Positions 33,001-42,000 of a DNA stretch of 64,000 nucleotides are shown here, in pieces; positions within the stretch are counted from its first letter, which is position 1; every line of letters begins with the position of its first letter. Made by a program: the position numbers. The DNA lies in NCBI GenBank assembly GCA_039960995.1, contig JBDVKF010000020.1, positions 8,948 to 72,947 on the forward strand, given 5' to 3'. The DNA is from Paracoccaceae bacterium (GTDB lineage: Bacteria; Pseudomonadota; Alphaproteobacteria; Rhodobacterales; Rhodobacteraceae).

Positions 33001-36000
33001 GAGATATTCGCAACCATTGACATGTACGGCGTTATACCGTACGTATCCAGATAAGGAGAATGACATGTTTGCAATTGAAACAGTGACCCCGACAGCGGGC
33101 AAGATGGAAGCCCGCAAAGAGTTGCGTATGCACCGTGCAGATGAAGAACGTATCCGGGCAGCTGCAGCAGCGACTGGCCTACAAGAAGCTGATTTCATTC
33201 GTCAAGCGGCGCTTCTGCGTGTTCAAGAAATAGAGCAACGCGTTTCATTGTCCGTTCTGCCAGCTGAGGCGTTTGATGCGTTCAAAGGCGCAGTTGAAGC
33301 TTCGGGCAAGGTCGTGCCTGGCTTGCAAAAAGCTGCAGAAGCATCGAAAGGCCTTTTGAAGGATGCCAGTTGATGCAGCGGCGTCCTTTGCCACTCTGAC
33401 ACTCGCTAAATTTGACAAAAATACTCACGACCGCAGCGCGTTTAGCTGTGGTTTTGAGCCAATCGATAATTTTCTCAAATCATCCCTGACGGACCAAATA
33501 AAGGCCGGAATGGTCGCGGCCTGGATCGCAACGACCGAGGATGATCCGACCGTGCTTGGTTTCTATACACTTGGGGCAATGGCCGTTCGGTCCGAATTTG
33601 GCCCGGCCAAATGGCAACGTAGCAGGGTGCCAGATGTGCCTGTCATCTATATCCGCGCCGTCGCTGTTCGAAAGGATATGCAGGGTAAAGGCCTTGGCTC
33701 GGCCCTTGTTATCGACGCCATGAAGCGATGTGACGCTATTTCCACGCAGATGGGGGCAGCCGCCATTGTATTGGATGTCTTGGAAGACGATGCGTTTGAA
33801 AAAAGATGGGCATTTTATAGAGATCTCGGTTTCGCACCTCTCGGGGACCCAACCAACAAACATCGTGTGTTCATATCAATGGCCGATGTGCGGGCCACTC
33901 TGGGGGCAGGGGACTAGAGGGTGAAAATGTAGACGTACGATTTCTGCGTTAATCGATCAAATCCATTAGGGCGGTTAGCTGGCTAGAGTGACCCGGTTCG
34001 GTCGGCCATTTGCAGTTGACTTACAAAGTGCAAACTTCGCGATGGGGTTGACTGAAAATCCGTTGGTGCGCATGATAGCCTTTTACTAAAATGGATTAAG
34101 AAATGGCGAAGCCATCAAAGCCGCATAATCTGAGTAAGAAATTCTTGATGGGTGTCGCGTTGTCAGCAATTCCGCTCGCAGGGTGCACTTCGATTGTGCC
34201 AACTGATGGGACAGCCGCCAATACACCGGTTGGAACCAGTGTGTCTGCGACAGCTGAAGAAGCGGCACTTTTTAAACGGGCAAATAGCTTGCGTACCGTT
34301 GCCGCAGCCGAGCAGTTTTTGCGCGCCTATCCGGACAGCGAGCTGGTGCGAAGTTTGCTGACGAGATTGCCACAATCGACCTTGCGTGGCATTGACGGTG
34401 AGGTGGTCGATGAAATCCCTCGATCGGTCATCAACAGTTTGCCTTTTAACGTTAAGCAAGCTCTTGCTGTGCAGACTGAGCGACAGGGCAATGTCTCGGG
34501 TAATTCTGGTCCATCTGACGGCTATAGCGGTTAATACGTGCTGAGAAACTGGGTATGACTTCCCAATCCAAGTTGCCGGCCGACGACGACATGTATGCAA
34601 CGCCGTCAGTGTCGGTGATTGTGACCAATTACAACTATGGTCACTATATTGAAGCCTGTCTGAACAGCTTGCGCATGCAGACCAGCCCGCCAGATGAAAT
34701 CATTGTCGTAAATGATGGCTCGACCGACGGCAGCGCCGATATTCTGTCGCTGATCAGCGATGTCGTGGTGATTGATCAACCCAATGGCGGTCAGGCCGCC
34801 GCATTCAATACCGGATTTGCGGCCAGCACCGGAGAAATCGTGGTCTTCGTTGATGCTGATGACAAGCTGCACGCCAGCGCTTTGCAGGTCATCCGTCGGC
34901 TGTGGACGAATGATATCTCGGCGTTGTCGTATGGTCTGAGCATGATCGATGGACAAGGTCAGGCTGTTGGTCAGTATGCTATGGACCTGCCAGACGGTGA
35001 CTTGCTACCGCGGTTGTTGGGCCATTTGACGGTCCCCTTCATGCCCACAACCGGTAATGCGTTTCGGCGCGCTGCAATTGAATGGGCCTTTCCCTTGCCC
35101 ACCGAGCGGTGGAGGATCAGTGCAGATGCCTTGTTGATCCGGGCTGCTATTCTGACTGCACCAATCCGCCATCTCCGGCACGTGCTGGGCGCCTATCGGG
35201 TTCATGGCCAGAACAACTACTTTCGAACTGGCGTCTCTGGGCCTTGGAAAGCAAACCGTGGGTTGCGCGACATCGCACGCGCGGGGCTGGATATGATCAC
35301 CCTCGTTGACCAAAACGACCGTTTTTTGCGCAGAGCAGACAGAAACAAATTATTAATCGCAGCAATACGTAGCCAGCTCAAAGCCGAAGTCCTGGCGTTT
35401 GATCCCGTTGCATGGGCCCAGTTTCAAAGGCGTGCACTTGCTCTTTGCCGGGGAACGCGATTCTACCTCAGCGTTGCGCTTTACTTGAACGCGGCCCGAT
35501 ACAGTCGCCGGCTGCGCCAATATGCAGTTGATCCGCGAACTTGCCCACGCGTCTTTATTGCGGCGGTAGAATTGATCCGGGGGCGCGCCATCAATCTGGA
35601 TTTGGCCGCCCGTGTTGAACCTCGTTCGCCGTTTGACACTCGTCTTCCTCCCAAAGGGCAAATGCCCAAAGATCCAATGGATTGGCTGACAGGACCAGAA
35701 TGGACACGTGACCATGCGTCCAGTGGCGCCGATCTGTGCGCTCAACAGAGTAGTTTCGTGCTTCGGCGCGTTTGGACAGGCCCTGCAAAGCTGACGCTAC
35801 ACATGGCCCCAACCACTGGCCCTATGGTAAAGGTATCCTTGTTTCACAATGGATTGCCGCTGGGTTCGGGTAATCTGACGTCAGCACGCGAATTCCACTT
35901 TACGTTGCCCGAAGCAAAAAGTTCTCCATCAGACTCCGAATTGATTGAGATTCGCACCGAAGATATTGTTCAAGGCCGATTTGGCGCGCTGTCGCGGATG

Positions 36001-39000: not shown

Positions 39001-42000
39001 AAACTTCGGCTGGAATATGACCAGACTTACGAACCGCAACCTCTAGGGCAATATCTGCGTACAAACGATGGTATCTTTCTGCAACATTTCGAATGTGACG
39101 AAAGCAATTGGCGCGCGGCTGTTGAGGCTTATTGGTTCATTGGGACGCTGGAACGTTTGCCGGAATGTCTTAATTACCTTGCTGAAAAACTGGACAAACC
39201 GGCGCCGGGTATCCTTCCTCATGAAAACAGCACGGTGCGCGACGAAGAAATCACCGAAGACGATATCGCGATTTTCAGGGCCAATAACGCAGTTGAGTTT
39301 GAAATCTATGACGCTGTGGCGGCCCGATTGGACGCATCATTGTTGCAACATTCGAGCGATTAGTTCACGGGCGGAAAATCGAGGTGCCCAGCCGGGATAG
39401 TCGGACTGGAACGCGCGTGTATCTGATATCCACCACATGTGATCGCCGTAGCGAGATTGAGGGTTGTGGTGGCGGGGCACTTCGCGGCCCAAAATCTCTT
39501 GGGCGAGATCAAGCGCTTCGGTCACGGAAACAGAACTGTTGCGACCGCCGCCCATATTGTAGACGCCTTTGGGTACTCCACCTTGCACGACACGTGCAAA
39601 GGCCTCTGCAAGATCATCGGCATGCAAATTGTCACGGACCTGTTTACCGCCATTTCCAATGATCTCATAGCTGTCTCCGGCCACAACGGATTTGCACAAA
39701 TAGGACAAGAAACCGTGCGCCTTTGCCCCGCTGTGATCTTCGCCGGTCAAGCATCCCGCGCGAAAGACTGCGGTCTGCAGATCAAACCGATCGGCATATT
39801 CCTGTACCATCAGATCGGCGGCTACTTTTGAAACACCAAAAAGACTATGCTGAGTCTGATCGATGGACATGGTTTCATCAATACCGTGCTTGAAAAACGG
39901 GTGATCTGTTGGCGGCTCTAATCGGGTATTGTGCGCGATCAAAGGCAACAGGTTCGGGCGGGCACCGTAGACCTTGTTGGTGCTGGTAAATAAAAACGAG
40001 GCGTTGGGTGCATGTGCGCGGCAGGCTTCCAGCAAGTTCAGAGTTGCGGTTGCATTGATGCCAAAATCGGTCTTGGGATCCGTGGCTGCCCAATCATGCG
40101 AAGGTTGTGCTGCGGTATGTACGACGACCCCCAACGCATTTCCAAACCGCCCAAACAGTGCATCGATGGCATTTTCATCGCGAATGTCGAGCTCGTAGTG
40201 CACATAGCCCGGGCAGGTGGCCTCAAGCATTGGGCGCTTTTCTGCATTACTTGCCGCGGCGCCAAACAGCTTTGAACGCTGATCGTTGTCGACACCAATA
40301 ACTTCAAAACCAAGTTCAGTAAATTTGCGCACCGCGGCAGTGCCGACAAGACCTAGTGAACCGGTGACAAGTGCCAAGCTTTTTTCGGTCAAGAGGCCTG
40401 TCTCCGTTTCGGGAACCGGTTTGCGGGACGTCATTCAACCCCTTAACAAAACGTATCGAGATCGCCTATACTGAACAAGTTGATTATTGCTTTTTGGATA
40501 ATTGGATTTTTGTGATACGGTCTTTGAATGACACAATTGAGAATTTTTATATCATCTATTGTGATGGTTTTGGTGTTCGCCGTTGGGGCTATCGCGCAAG
40601 TGTCAGGCCAGACAGACAACAAACGCGTGGCCTTTGTTGTCGGCAACTCCGCTTATCAAGGTACTCTTCCGGAACTGAAAAATCCTGTCAATGATGCTCA
40701 GGATATGGCGGTAAAGCTGGAGGAGTTGGGCTTTGAGGTGATTGTTGCCACCGATCTAAGCCTGCGCGCTTTTCGCTCGTCCCTCCTTGAATTTGCTACG
40801 GCCATGGAAGGAGCAAACACATCATTGTTCTTTTATGCAGGCCATGGTGTTCAGGTAAATGACGAAAACCATTTGATCCCGATTGATGCGCAAATTTCGC
40901 GCGTGCGCAGCTTGGCTGACGAAACGATCACTGTGAATAGGATCGTGGGATTGATGAACCAGTTCACGGATACCTCGATTGTGCTTCTTGACGCGTGTCG
41001 GGACAATCCGCTGACCAGCGATATTCCGATTGGTGAACAGCAGGATGGCTTTGGACGCGGTCTCGCACGTGTCAGAGCGGATGGGGGCTCTTATATCGCA
41101 TTTGCGACAGCACCAGGCAACGTTGCCTACGATGGGGAAGGGCGCAACAGCCCGTTCACAACCGCCTTGCTGCAGCATATTTCCGCGCCAAACTTAGATA
41201 TTCGTCTGATGATGGCCGATGTGCGCCGTGATGTGTTTGAAGCGACTCAACAGCGGCAACTACCTTGGGAAAATAACTCGTTGATTGGCCGGTTCTTCTT
41301 TGATGAGAACAGTACGTTGCAAAGGCTCGACAGCGCCAATCGTAACGAAGTAGAGGCTTGGCAAGCGATAGCGAACTCAAACCGGCGCGAAGATTACACC
41401 GCATTTATGCGCGACTTTCCGGACGGCAATTTCGCATCGGTCGCCGAATTGAAGGTAGCTGCACTTGGGCAGGCTGAAGAACGGGCCAGCGAGGCGCAAT
41501 CAGGTTTCGTTCTCGCACGGGCGACCAACACAGAAGATAGGTGGGAAGATTTCCTGGAAAAACACCCTCAGGGTTTGCTGTCTGACATTGCGCGTGAGGA
41601 ATTGAGGGAGTTACGCGACCAGATTGAACGTGATCGTATGTCGCTTGAAGAAATGCACTGGCGCTCGATTGCGCAGTCGCGCGCGCCATCCGACTTCAGG
41701 ACGTATCTTTCAATTTATAGCAACGGTCCGTTTTCCGATCTAGCACGCGATCGTTTAGAGGCGGCGGAGCGTGCAGAAGAGATTGTGGCGACATTTACCG
41801 GAGGGGATGCTCCCGAGAATGTCAGCGACGTGCGTCTCGAACAAGAAATCAAAGCCAAAATTGACCAGATTCCAGTTCAGTTCATTCAATATGGGCTGAA
41901 TGCCCTCGGTCATCAGGTCACCGATATCTCGGGGGTTCTAGACCCGCCAACCCGGCGTGCGGTTCGCAATTACCAGGCAACAATTGAAGCCACCCAGACG

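Follow-up and report, generated by a model that had tools for sequence, protein, structure and literature searches.

The 64,000-nucleotide stretch of Paracoccaceae bacterium contig JBDVKF010000020.1 (positions 8,948 to 72,947, assembly GCA_039960995.1), here called the window, carries one open reading frame (ORF) of 1602 codons in which a GT2 glycosyltransferase, a GT41 glycosyltransferase and a sulfotransferase dependent on 3'-phosphoadenosine 5'-phosphosulfate (PAPS) are joined in a single chain. The function of this protein, referred to below as the giant enzyme, is probably the assembly of a short sulfated glycan. The reading favoured here, slightly more probable than improbable, is that of a trifunctional cytoplasmic enzyme whose most likely acceptor is a protein, the best candidate being F1, a small lipoprotein encoded immediately upstream. 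Public records call the protein just "glycosyltransferase".

The giant ORF (34555..39363, + strand) begins with an ATG and runs to a product of 1602 residues without any internal stop. An earlier note on this DNA had proposed that GT2, GT41 and sulfotransferase are combined in one polypeptide, and had itself raised the possibilities that the ORF is an artefactual fusion of separate genes or that profile searches fail to support two of the domains. All the motifs quoted there are found in the translation. Moreover, among 5.8 billion proteins searched, 22 additional full-length ones (1549-1627 residues, 36-76% identity) were found to have identical domain order, coming from independent assemblies of both metagenome-assembled genomes (MAGs) and cultured isolates; because these orthologues keep the architecture, the giant ORF is not an artefactual fusion and represents a conserved single gene. 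In a scan of species-representative genomes the orthologues were located in Paracoccaceae/Rhodobacteraceae; cultured carriers among them are Meridianimarinicoccus, strain IMCC 34051 and Actibacterium, which has two copies. PLSDB held no near-identical DNA for the giant ORF, and a tblastn search against plasmids gave single-domain relatives only, with no full-length match. Residue counts given below refer to 23 sequences, i.e., the window protein and the 22 full-length orthologues. Along this alignment conservation reaches 0.6-0.84 in the three catalytic blocks and 0.34-0.58 in the middle of the protein, and the catalytic motifs of GT2, GT41 and sulfotransferase are kept in 21-23 of the 23 sequences. 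Such retention shows the three active sites to be intact and under purifying selection, and all three domains look catalytically competent. Since no transmembrane segment is predicted (maximum Kyte-Doolittle value 1.57 in a 19-residue window), the giant enzyme is taken as cytoplasmic, and it should thus reside in the compartment where nucleotide sugars and PAPS are available.

The GT2 domain, of the inverting GT-A type, occupies residues 17-225 (34603..35229, +). PF00535 matches residues 20-175 with an E-value of 1.3e-27 and 97.3 bits, well above the cut-off of 23.3, and no variation (23/23) occurs at D54, G55, S56 and D58, in the D100-A-D102-D103 motif or at D191, the last being a candidate for the catalytic base. 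With the DDGS-type signature for nucleotide binding and the DxD motif for metal/diphosphate (DADD) kept without exception, the N-terminal domain is the GT2 enzyme that had been claimed. Its nearest relatives in the PDB, as found with the family profile, are the chondroitin polymerase K4CP (8e-22), GalT1 (3.5e-21) and heparosan synthase (3e-15).

The second glycosyltransferase is a GT-B catalytic domain of the GT41 (OGT/SPINDLY) type, present with both lobes at residues ~1005-1360 (37567..38634, +). PF13844 covers only the C-lobe (residues 1175-1357, 61.5 bits where the cut-off is 25, E 6e-17), in agreement with the C-terminal catalytic lobe reported from the sequence. The second lobe was found as well, since the family profile aligned residues 1005-1356 to XcOGT 200-540 at E 5e-27, that is, over both Rossmann lobes, and the beta-alpha-beta units of the N-lobe start at residue ~1012 in an AlphaFold2 model. 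The window protein alone, searched against the PDB with phmmer, retrieved the Thermobaculum OGT TtOGT (5djs, 3e-19), SPINDLY (1e-17) and XcOGT (2e-15), while the family profile gave SPINDLY at 3e-27, TtOGT at 1.5e-27, human OGT at 1.5e-23 and the HMW1C-type N-glycosyltransferase (NGT) at 1e-4; all these solved relatives are protein glycosyltransferases. K1196 aligns with the Lys of the SPINDLY segment "nnlaKitpkvl" and is kept in 22 of 23 orthologues; we take it to be the nucleotide-phosphate-binding Lys equivalent to K842 of human OGT and its SPINDLY counterpart. Likewise, the D-S-F-P-Y-S-G-A-T-T-T motif is conserved, with S-G-A-T-T in 21-22 of 23. A superhelix of tetratricopeptide repeats (TPR) at the N-terminus is typical of OGT and SPINDLY and not of NGT, hence it is not strictly defining for GT41. 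A TPR in front of the GT41 domain was considered and rejected: no TPR family is detected in the giant protein by Pfam at E<=1 or 10, and the PDB profile alignment with XcOGT begins only at residue ~1005. TPRs are not detectable, then, but GT41 is nonetheless directly preceded by a helical domain.

The sulfotransferase domain (residues 1385-1600, 38707..39354, +) was the weakest of the three earlier assignments, and its identification relies on matches of orthologous domains, on fold matches and on conserved PAPS-binding residues. By sequence the window domain gave no match in the PDB. When 19 orthologous domains were aligned, 11 of them matched PF03567 (Sulfotransfer_2; best E 1.9e-4) and four PF00685, and the profile of this alignment found SULT4A1 weakly (E 0.2) over the 3'-phosphate-binding region. 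The AlphaFold2 model built from the same alignment has a predicted local distance difference test (pLDDT) of 90.9 and a predicted TM-score (pTM) of 0.88, and when Foldseek compared it with the PDB, PAPS sulfotransferases made up all of the 50 best matches (probability 0.98-1.00). The highest TM-score, 0.60, belongs to heparan sulfate 6-O-sulfotransferase, NDST1 appears at 2.4e-5, and the tyrosylprotein sulfotransferase TPST1 (5wrj) stands at rank 44 with an E-value of 1e-3. The residues that would bind PAPS are retained, both in the 5'-phosphosulfate-binding (5'-PSB) loop P-K1394-T-G-G-T-S (K1394, G1396 and G1397 in 23/23) and in the 3'-phosphate-binding (3'-PB) motif R1468-D-P-..-S1476 (R1468 in 23/23, S1476 in 22/23); H1440, kept in 22/23, is a candidate base. 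On the strength of the model and of these matches the C-terminal domain is taken to be a true sulfotransferase, one of the carbohydrate (HS6ST/Sulfotransfer_2-like) type. Profile and fold searches thus back GT41 and sulfotransferase alike, and with GT2 the combination of the three domains in one ORF is borne out by profile matches, predicted fold and conserved motifs. Where the sulfotransferase domain has homologues that stand alone (L020-L022), the genes around them are for peptide ABC transporters and dehydrogenases, a setting that is uninformative on their substrate.

Between GT2 and GT41, a segment of ~750 residues had been left unassigned. It has in fact no Pfam match (residues ~230-1010). 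From a structural perspective, however, it is not featureless: an AlphaFold2 model of residues 226-1075 (md77fbbed6cd8, 28 homologues, pLDDT 85) predicts a helical linker or bundle at residues 226-351 (35230..35607; model helices H4-126, block pLDDT mostly 85-93), three beta-sandwiches of jelly-roll type at residues 383-498, 536-629 and 645-775 (35701..36879), and an all-helical, non-TPR-like domain at residues 791-992 (36925..37530; helices H566-767) directly before GT41, all encoded on the + strand. In Foldseek searches of the PDB the model matched proteins with multiple carbohydrate-binding modules (CBM) at E-values of 9e-12 to 1e-7, among them the Paenibacillus glucosyltransferase 5x7o (9e-12), Cry protoxins, EngBF GH101, BcsB and ZmpB CBM51; with a multidomain model of 850 residues as query, the global TM-scores come out low (0.10-0.14). 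By their predicted fold the beta-sandwiches may be related to CBMs of the galactose-binding-like jelly-roll type, and are termed CBM-like below; no sequence family was matched by any of them in Pfam or in a PDB profile search. An internal duplication was also considered as their origin and rejected, as no sequence similarity is detectable among the three.

The strongest clue that the gene context offers is the upstream F1 gene together with a recurrent periplasmic module of caspase and FGE-like proteins, both of which had been missed by the earlier note. F1 (34103..34534, +) is an unannotated gene for a lipoprotein of 143 residues that ends 20 nt upstream of the giant ORF, with no terminator-like site in the gap. 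Its product consists of a signal peptide with an LAGC lipobox, a linker rich in T, S, A and P, one TPR-like "FLxxYPxS" hairpin and three short "LPxxxLxxL" repeats, followed in the window copy by a G/S-rich tail that ends in ..SDGYSG. When ORFs were called and clustered in 23 related loci and the window, an F1 gene of ~145 codons was found immediately 5' of the giant gene in 17 of the 18 loci that have a 5' flank. Two loci of Mesorhizobium (L024, L027), one that lacks GT41 (L026) and one from a metagenome (L028) have it as well, so that the pairing spans Rhodobacterales and Hyphomicrobiales. F1 and the giant gene form an obligate two-gene unit. No match to F1 exists in Pfam, NCBIfam or PADLOC; an indexed search gave 24 clusters only, and every long contig among them also bears a homologue of the giant enzyme. 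An exhaustive hidden Markov model (HMM) search of 1.84 billion representatives raised the number of relatives to 277, and the best 150 of these include 119 new ones of 200 residues or less. Tyr is the last residue in 69 of these 119 small proteins and lies within the last four (-Y or -Y-x-G) in 104; judged by these tails, a C-terminal Tyr is a hallmark of the F1 family, occurring far above chance. An N-glycosylation sequon in the tail was considered and rejected, because NVS occurs in the window copy alone and is not conserved.

Some further observations concern the F1 family. Its C-terminal half, with the "LPxxxLxxL" units (profile positions ~78-128), is met again, in 5-39 stretches arranged in tandem, in very large proteins of 900-3000 residues (P0099, P0115, P0138, P0142, P0218, P0220 and P0235). 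In L003 and L009, F1 has a C-terminal extension of ~170 residues beyond the GYSG/GYGG motif, and the genome of Actibacterium sp. 188UL27-1 contains two paralogous F1-giant pairs (L003 and L007), only one of which has caspase/FGE genes beside it.

The relatives of the giant enzyme, grouped by local BLAST of the hits and by inspection of the loci, are built modularly around a constant core of GT2, helical, beta-sandwich and helical parts, to which different accessories are added. The window gene represents the variant with GT41 and a Sulfotransfer_2-like sulfotransferase; the same type of sulfotransferase without GT41 is found in P0024 and P0027 (locus L026), GT41 without sulfotransferase in P0030, P0032, P0038 and the second giant protein of L027 (giantB), and the core alone in P0041 and L015. 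Finally, in Mesorhizobium and others (P0033-P0040) GT41 is followed by a sulfotransferase of the Stf0 type (PF09037, E 3e-13 to 2e-5), which in these distant relatives occupies the same C-terminal position as the Sulfotransfer_2-like domain. That one sulfotransferase family can take the place of another at this position argues independently that the selected function is sulfation of the product. F1 accompanies every one of these architectural variants. In the Hyphomicrobiales Chthonobacter and Mesorhizobium, F1 is followed by two tandem giant genes (L013 3222-12181, L024 3849-12989, L027 9001-17180), the first encoding ~1200-1230 residues with ~280 additional N-terminal residues ahead of GT2, the second a GT2-GT41 protein with or without Stf0.

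Downstream, the giant ORF converges with a gene for an extended short-chain dehydrogenase/reductase (SDR) of the sugar-nucleotide epimerase type (39337..40434, - strand; PF01370, E 4e-38), and the two 3' ends overlap by 27 nt (39337-39363). The closest solved relative of the epimerase is CDP-tyvelose 2-epimerase (PDB 9rl0, 5e-29; 1orr, 7e-28). The same overlapping arrangement is seen in L005, L011, L012 and L028, and an epimerase gene adjoins the giant gene in seven genome loci, the window counted among them, and in L028. A second enzyme of nucleotide-sugar metabolism, a UDP-glucuronate decarboxylase (UDP-xylose synthase; 43839..44798, +), matches human UXS1 (2b69) with 399 bits and E 1.6e-118, and is part of the cluster in the window and L005 only. 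The ORF as called mechanically begins at 43674 and overlaps the preceding gene by 146 nt; the start is more likely the ATG at 43839, because homology to UXS1 begins near there.

Between these two genes lies the periplasmic module. A caspase-like protease (Peptidase_C14; 40528..42315, +), provided with an N-terminal signal sequence, contains TPR-like linker repeats, PG_binding_1 and Sel1 domains and the dyad of His (YAGHG) and Cys (DACR). It is followed by two secreted proteins with signal peptides and the fold of the formylglycine-generating enzyme (FGE)-sulfatase family (42312-43013 and 43010-43819, +; PF03781, E 1e-28 and 1e-31), the second being the gene overlapped by the mechanical UDP-xylose synthase ORF. 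The catalytic Cys pair of FGE follows the RGGSW motif. In both proteins no Cys is found downstream of the RGxSW/SGGWS motif, i.e., the pair is missing, and their PDB matches are PvdO (7e-24), the inactive pFGE and PorK; they are fold relatives and not sulfatase-maturing enzymes. The "sulfatase" label is therefore no evidence for a link to sulfation, and a functional tie between the sulfotransferase and these genes was rejected on the same grounds. Of the 19 genome loci with usable flanks, the window included, 12 have a caspase gene, an FGE-like gene or both next to the giant gene (window, L001, L005, L006, L007, L010, L011, L012, L013, L015, L017 and L018), and caspase genes additionally flank it in L024, L027 and L028. 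Moreover, the best non-self matches of an HMM of the F1 helical core are the linker repeats of the caspases (L006, 1.6e-8). L028 holds the same six-gene cassette in a different flank, hence the cassette moves as a unit. L003, L004, L008 and L009 have the F1-giant pair with no caspase or FGE gene within 10 kb, and in L008 and L003 the flanks contain unrelated genes only (YqcI, cupin, amino-acid permease, M1 peptidase). In none of the ~25 loci is a lipid-carrier priming transferase, a flippase or polymerase (Wzx/Wzy), or an exporter (ABC exporter, OPX) conserved in the flanks examined.

According to the favoured reading, the polypeptide is a soluble carbohydrate-modifying enzyme with three functions, built from GT2 through the helical linker, the three CBM-like beta-sandwiches and the helical domain to GT41 and the C-terminal sulfotransferase. 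Both glycosyltransferase domains would add sugars from nucleotide donors, provided in part by the adjacent epimerase and UDP-xylose synthase, while the beta-sandwiches may hold the nascent glycan as the sulfotransferase sulfates it; the product would be a glycan of two sugars, possibly including xylose, plus sulfate. F1 would be modified before export, on its disordered, S/G-rich and Tyr-terminated tail, and in the periplasm the caspase and the FGE-like proteins, which have a lectin fold, may bind or process the decorated lipoprotein. The acceptor is most likely a protein, because the solved relatives of the GT41 domain modify proteins and no export machinery is linked, and because pairs of a substrate gene and a dedicated transferase gene are a known pattern (HMW1C-HMW1, FlmG); to our knowledge, every characterised GT41 enzyme modifies proteins. 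F1 is the best candidate for this protein, although its choice is tentative and, taken by itself, more likely wrong than right.

Several observations weigh against this reading. The window sulfotransferase domain itself (C-terminal 218 residues) reaches PF03567 at only E 0.02 and 15.3 bits, below the cut-off of 22, and no PAPS-synthesis gene was seen among the scanned ORFs of the window (the first ~20 kb being unscanned). The variants lacking GT41 or the sulfotransferase still pair with F1, which is thus tied to no single accessory activity. The F1 alignment has no invariant Ser or Thr, and two Meridianimarinicoccus-type F1 proteins (L011 and L012, ending in ..NGRSGS) are devoid of the terminal Tyr. 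We know of no precedent for the export of a sulfated glycoprotein by Sec. The pTM of the middle model is 0.42, hence the mutual orientation of these domains, well folded as they are in the model, is undefined, and the CBM-like modules, together with the likeness of GT2 to glycosaminoglycan (GAG) polymerases, fit a polysaccharide equally well.

This last point leads to the main rival, which is rather improbable: the giant enzyme would be a dual-glycosyltransferase polymerase, in which GT2 and the GT-B domain alternate to make a sulfated, GAG-like poly- or oligosaccharide. Started from a lipid or another kind of primer, the polymer would be made on the inner side of the membrane and exported by unlinked machinery, with F1, the FGE-like proteins and the caspase serving as its periplasmic receptors, anchors or processors. 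Not only are K4CP and heparosan synthase the best solved relatives of GT2, and heparan sulfate 6-O-sulfotransferase and NDST1 those closest in fold to the sulfotransferase domain, but the three CBM-like domains and the adjacent UDP-xylose synthase and epimerase genes would suit a polymerase too, and clusters for sulfated exopolysaccharides (EPS) that contain sulfotransferases are known in cyanobacteria (PMC8205485). The genomic setting speaks against it, since none of the priming and export genes named above is conserved in the ~25 loci and the F1-enzyme pair stands alone among unrelated genes in several genomes. Moreover, the giant enzyme has no membrane segment, and no member of GT41 is known to us to make a polysaccharide.

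A less probable alternative, indeed an unlikely one, places the periplasmic caspase at the centre and treats glycan biosynthesis as secondary. The cassette would be a surveillance or conflict system of the envelope, and the sulfated ligand or modification made by the cytoplasmic enzyme would arm or restrain the caspase/FGE-like module or be sensed by it. The recurrence of this module beside the enzyme, the intact cassette in another flank in L028, the presence of three Peptidase_C14 genes on the window and the weak resemblance of the window caspase to the EACC1-associated conflict-system type are all consistent with such a role, as are the F1 helical motif in the caspase linker and the recurrent caspase-FGE fusions, a known architecture of unexplained role (PMC3501461). 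In contrast, neither the giant enzyme nor F1 nor the FGE-like proteins have a matching model in PADLOC, components typical of conflict systems, such as an NTPase, are not seen, and the four loci without caspase or FGE genes show that the pair is found without the module.

A slightly weaker proposal starts from the F1 tail: the sulfotransferase could be a tyrosyl-protein sulfotransferase (RaxST/TPST-like) that acts on the C-terminal Tyr, the glycosyltransferases would modify a nearby Ser or another substrate, and an Arg/Lys-specific periplasmic caspase could release a short modified C-terminal peptide. It would explain the hallmark Tyr (within the last four residues in 104 of the 119 small relatives), which in Rhodobacterales usually stands after Asp-Gly and before small residues, as well as the Arg that is common 10-20 residues ahead of the C-terminus, and TPST1 is found among the fold matches, far down as it is. 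However, the terminal Tyr is retained where the enzyme has no sulfotransferase (P0038/P0093, L027) and is lost in L011 and L012, whose enzyme has one, which makes Tyr sulfation of F1 less likely. Furthermore, by fold and by family the sulfotransferase domain is matched best by carbohydrate sulfotransferases, the domain that replaces it in distant relatives is of the Stf0 type, a carbohydrate (trehalose) sulfotransferase family, and the Hyphomicrobiales tails have no acidic residues near the Tyr. Lastly, that the giant ORF is an assembly or sequencing artefact joining separate genes, or that at least one domain is a dead relic, is effectively refuted already, since the frame-shifted C-terminus of the relative P0023 and the broken copy in L018 stand against an architecture common to 22 independent full-length orthologues, cultured isolates included, and against motifs of all three domains kept in 21-23 of 23 sequences. 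The L018 copy (9980-14954), from a MAG labelled Verrucomicrobiae, is split into ORFs of 141, 955 and 167 residues and is either a pseudogene or an assembly error; the label of this bin is doubtful because the neighbouring genes are alphaproteobacterial.

The cassette starts ~600 bp past a TacAT-type toxin-antitoxin pair, a TacA-like antitoxin followed by a GNAT acetyltransferase (32870-33917), which itself comes after a plasmid maintenance module composed of a Rep3-type initiator (- strand), ParA and ParB (28755-32910). The rep gene shares 75-78% DNA identity with that of Ketogulonicigenium, Pseudosulfitobacter, Paracoccus and Sulfitobacter plasmids. Initiator, partition genes and a sign change of the GC skew at ~30 kb indicate that the window belongs to a plasmid or chromid of Rhodobacteraceae. 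Type VI secretion genes are also present (~15600-25019), namely TssC/VipB (21885-23375, -), TssA/ImpA_N (23958-25019, -) and, at ~15.6-17.0 kb, a TssH-like stretch with a match to tssH of a Leisingera plasmid. The idea that the giant protein is an effector of this secretion system was rejected, as no Type VI genes occur among the conserved neighbours of the orthologous loci. At 25249-28714 the window encodes ExbB, ExbD and a 518-residue protein with a transmembrane segment, a Pro/Thr-rich region and a terminal DUF4384; the same set adjoins a caspase-FGE fusion gene and a homologue of the giant enzyme in L016 (1197-6711), and possibly belongs to the caspase module as an additional part. Beyond the cassette are the two other Peptidase_C14 genes (50325-51806, -, and 53556-55100, +), one of which precedes OmpH-like and OmpA/YceI genes. 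A 1259-residue ORF at 46270-50049 (-), lying where the AT skew is strong (-0.21) and with no match in Pfam, NCBIfam or PADLOC, encodes an acidic, Ala-rich product whose "GPVGSCFS" motif could mark an effector of the Cys-protease type.

What the favoured reading would mean can be summarized from its boldest form, a bacterial "proteoglycan-like" system in which the F1 core, recognizable by its C-terminal Tyr or Y-x-G, would be given a short sulfated, possibly xylose-containing glycan in the cytoplasm, on its C-terminal tail or close to it, and then exported, lipid-anchored, and read, tethered or cleaved by the peptidoglycan-binding caspase and the FGE-like proteins. As a complete scheme this is improbable; if true, Alphaproteobacteria would have a dedicated pathway of protein glycosylation and sulfation that forms a class of its own and is new, and there is a moderate chance that a new type of such a pathway has been met here. 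Two glycosyltransferases and a sulfotransferase in one soluble chain would make a compact, clonable machine for a defined sulfated glycan, with a ready-made candidate acceptor encoded 20 nt upstream, and the long-unexplained pairing of bacterial caspases and FGE proteins gains a concrete, testable genetic partner. The predictions are directly testable, since the carriers in culture include Actibacterium sp. 188UL27-1, Meridianimarinicoccus marinus DFM31, Rhodobacteraceae IMCC 34051, Mesorhizobium and Chthonobacter. Among the papers retrieved in a literature search, none describes a characterised GT2-GT41-sulfotransferase fusion or ties such an enzyme to the lipoprotein or to the caspase/FGE genes.

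Among known systems, the GT41 OGTs (XcOGT 2vsn, Thermobaculum OGT 5djs, SPINDLY 7y4i, human OGT 3pe3) share with the giant enzyme the two-lobe GT-B fold, the putative nucleotide-binding Lys and the P-Y-x-G-x-T-T motif; in the giant enzyme, however, no TPR superhelix is detectable, GT2, beta-sandwiches and a helical domain precede GT41, and a sulfotransferase is fused C-terminally. The HMW1C/NGT enzymes (GT41; 3q3e, 8j30) are soluble and without TPRs as well. They have an all-alpha N-domain and are encoded beside the exported protein that they modify before Sec export (HMW1C-HMW1), a gene-pair logic that, by analogy, is proposed for F1 and the giant gene. Unlike the giant enzyme they have a single activity, with no GT2, CBM-like or sulfotransferase modules, and their sequence likeness to it is weak (E 1e-4 to 4e-4 over the C-lobe). 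A soluble alphaproteobacterial enzyme that O-glycosylates flagellin in the cytoplasm before export is FlmG of Caulobacter, in which a substrate-binding domain at the N-terminus is joined to a GT-B domain at the C-terminus (PMC7591256); again in contrast to the giant enzyme, it has one activity, its substrate is flagellin, its donor pseudaminic acid, and no sulfation is involved.

The GAG polymerases (K4CP of E. coli K4, 2z86; Pasteurella heparosan synthase, 8vh7) resemble the giant enzyme in having two glycosyltransferase domains in one soluble or peripheral chain, whereas in them the second domain is of another family than GT41, sulfotransferase and CBM-like modules are missing, and they come with dedicated capsule export genes that are absent from the giant-gene loci. 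With the carbohydrate sulfotransferases (heparan sulfate 6-O-sulfotransferase 5t03/5t05, NDST1 8ccy, Sulfotransfer_2) the C-terminal domain shares the fold (TM 0.5-0.6, probability 1.0), the 5'-PSB P-K-x-G-G-T-S loop and the 3'-PB R...S motif, and NDST1 is itself a bifunctional fusion; the identity is 12-17%, and the domain of the giant enzyme is bacterial, predicted to be cytoplasmic and placed behind two glycosyltransferases. The well-documented sulfated glycoconjugates of bacteria are the rhizobial Nod factors and lipopolysaccharide, the mycobacterial sulfolipids and the cyanobacterial EPS. PAPS-dependent sulfation of a glycoconjugate is carried out there by XssA/XssE of the synechan xss cluster, by rhizobial NodH/LpsS and by mycobacterial Stf0, enzymes that stand alone and act with Wzx/Wzy or Nod machinery, whereas the window sulfotransferase is fused and has no linked export genes. 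[quoted passage not shown] Finally, the combination seen in the window neighbours is that of the prokaryotic caspases with FGE-sulfatase, Sel1 and peptidoglycan-binding domains (PMC3501461); a tie of such a module to a glycosyl/sulfotransferase and a dedicated lipoprotein, as seen in the window, did not appear in the papers retrieved, and the window FGE-like proteins are devoid of the catalytic Cys pair. Set against all these systems, the giant enzyme is rated as known chemistry, each catalytic domain belonging to a known family, in an undescribed architecture and gene partnership.

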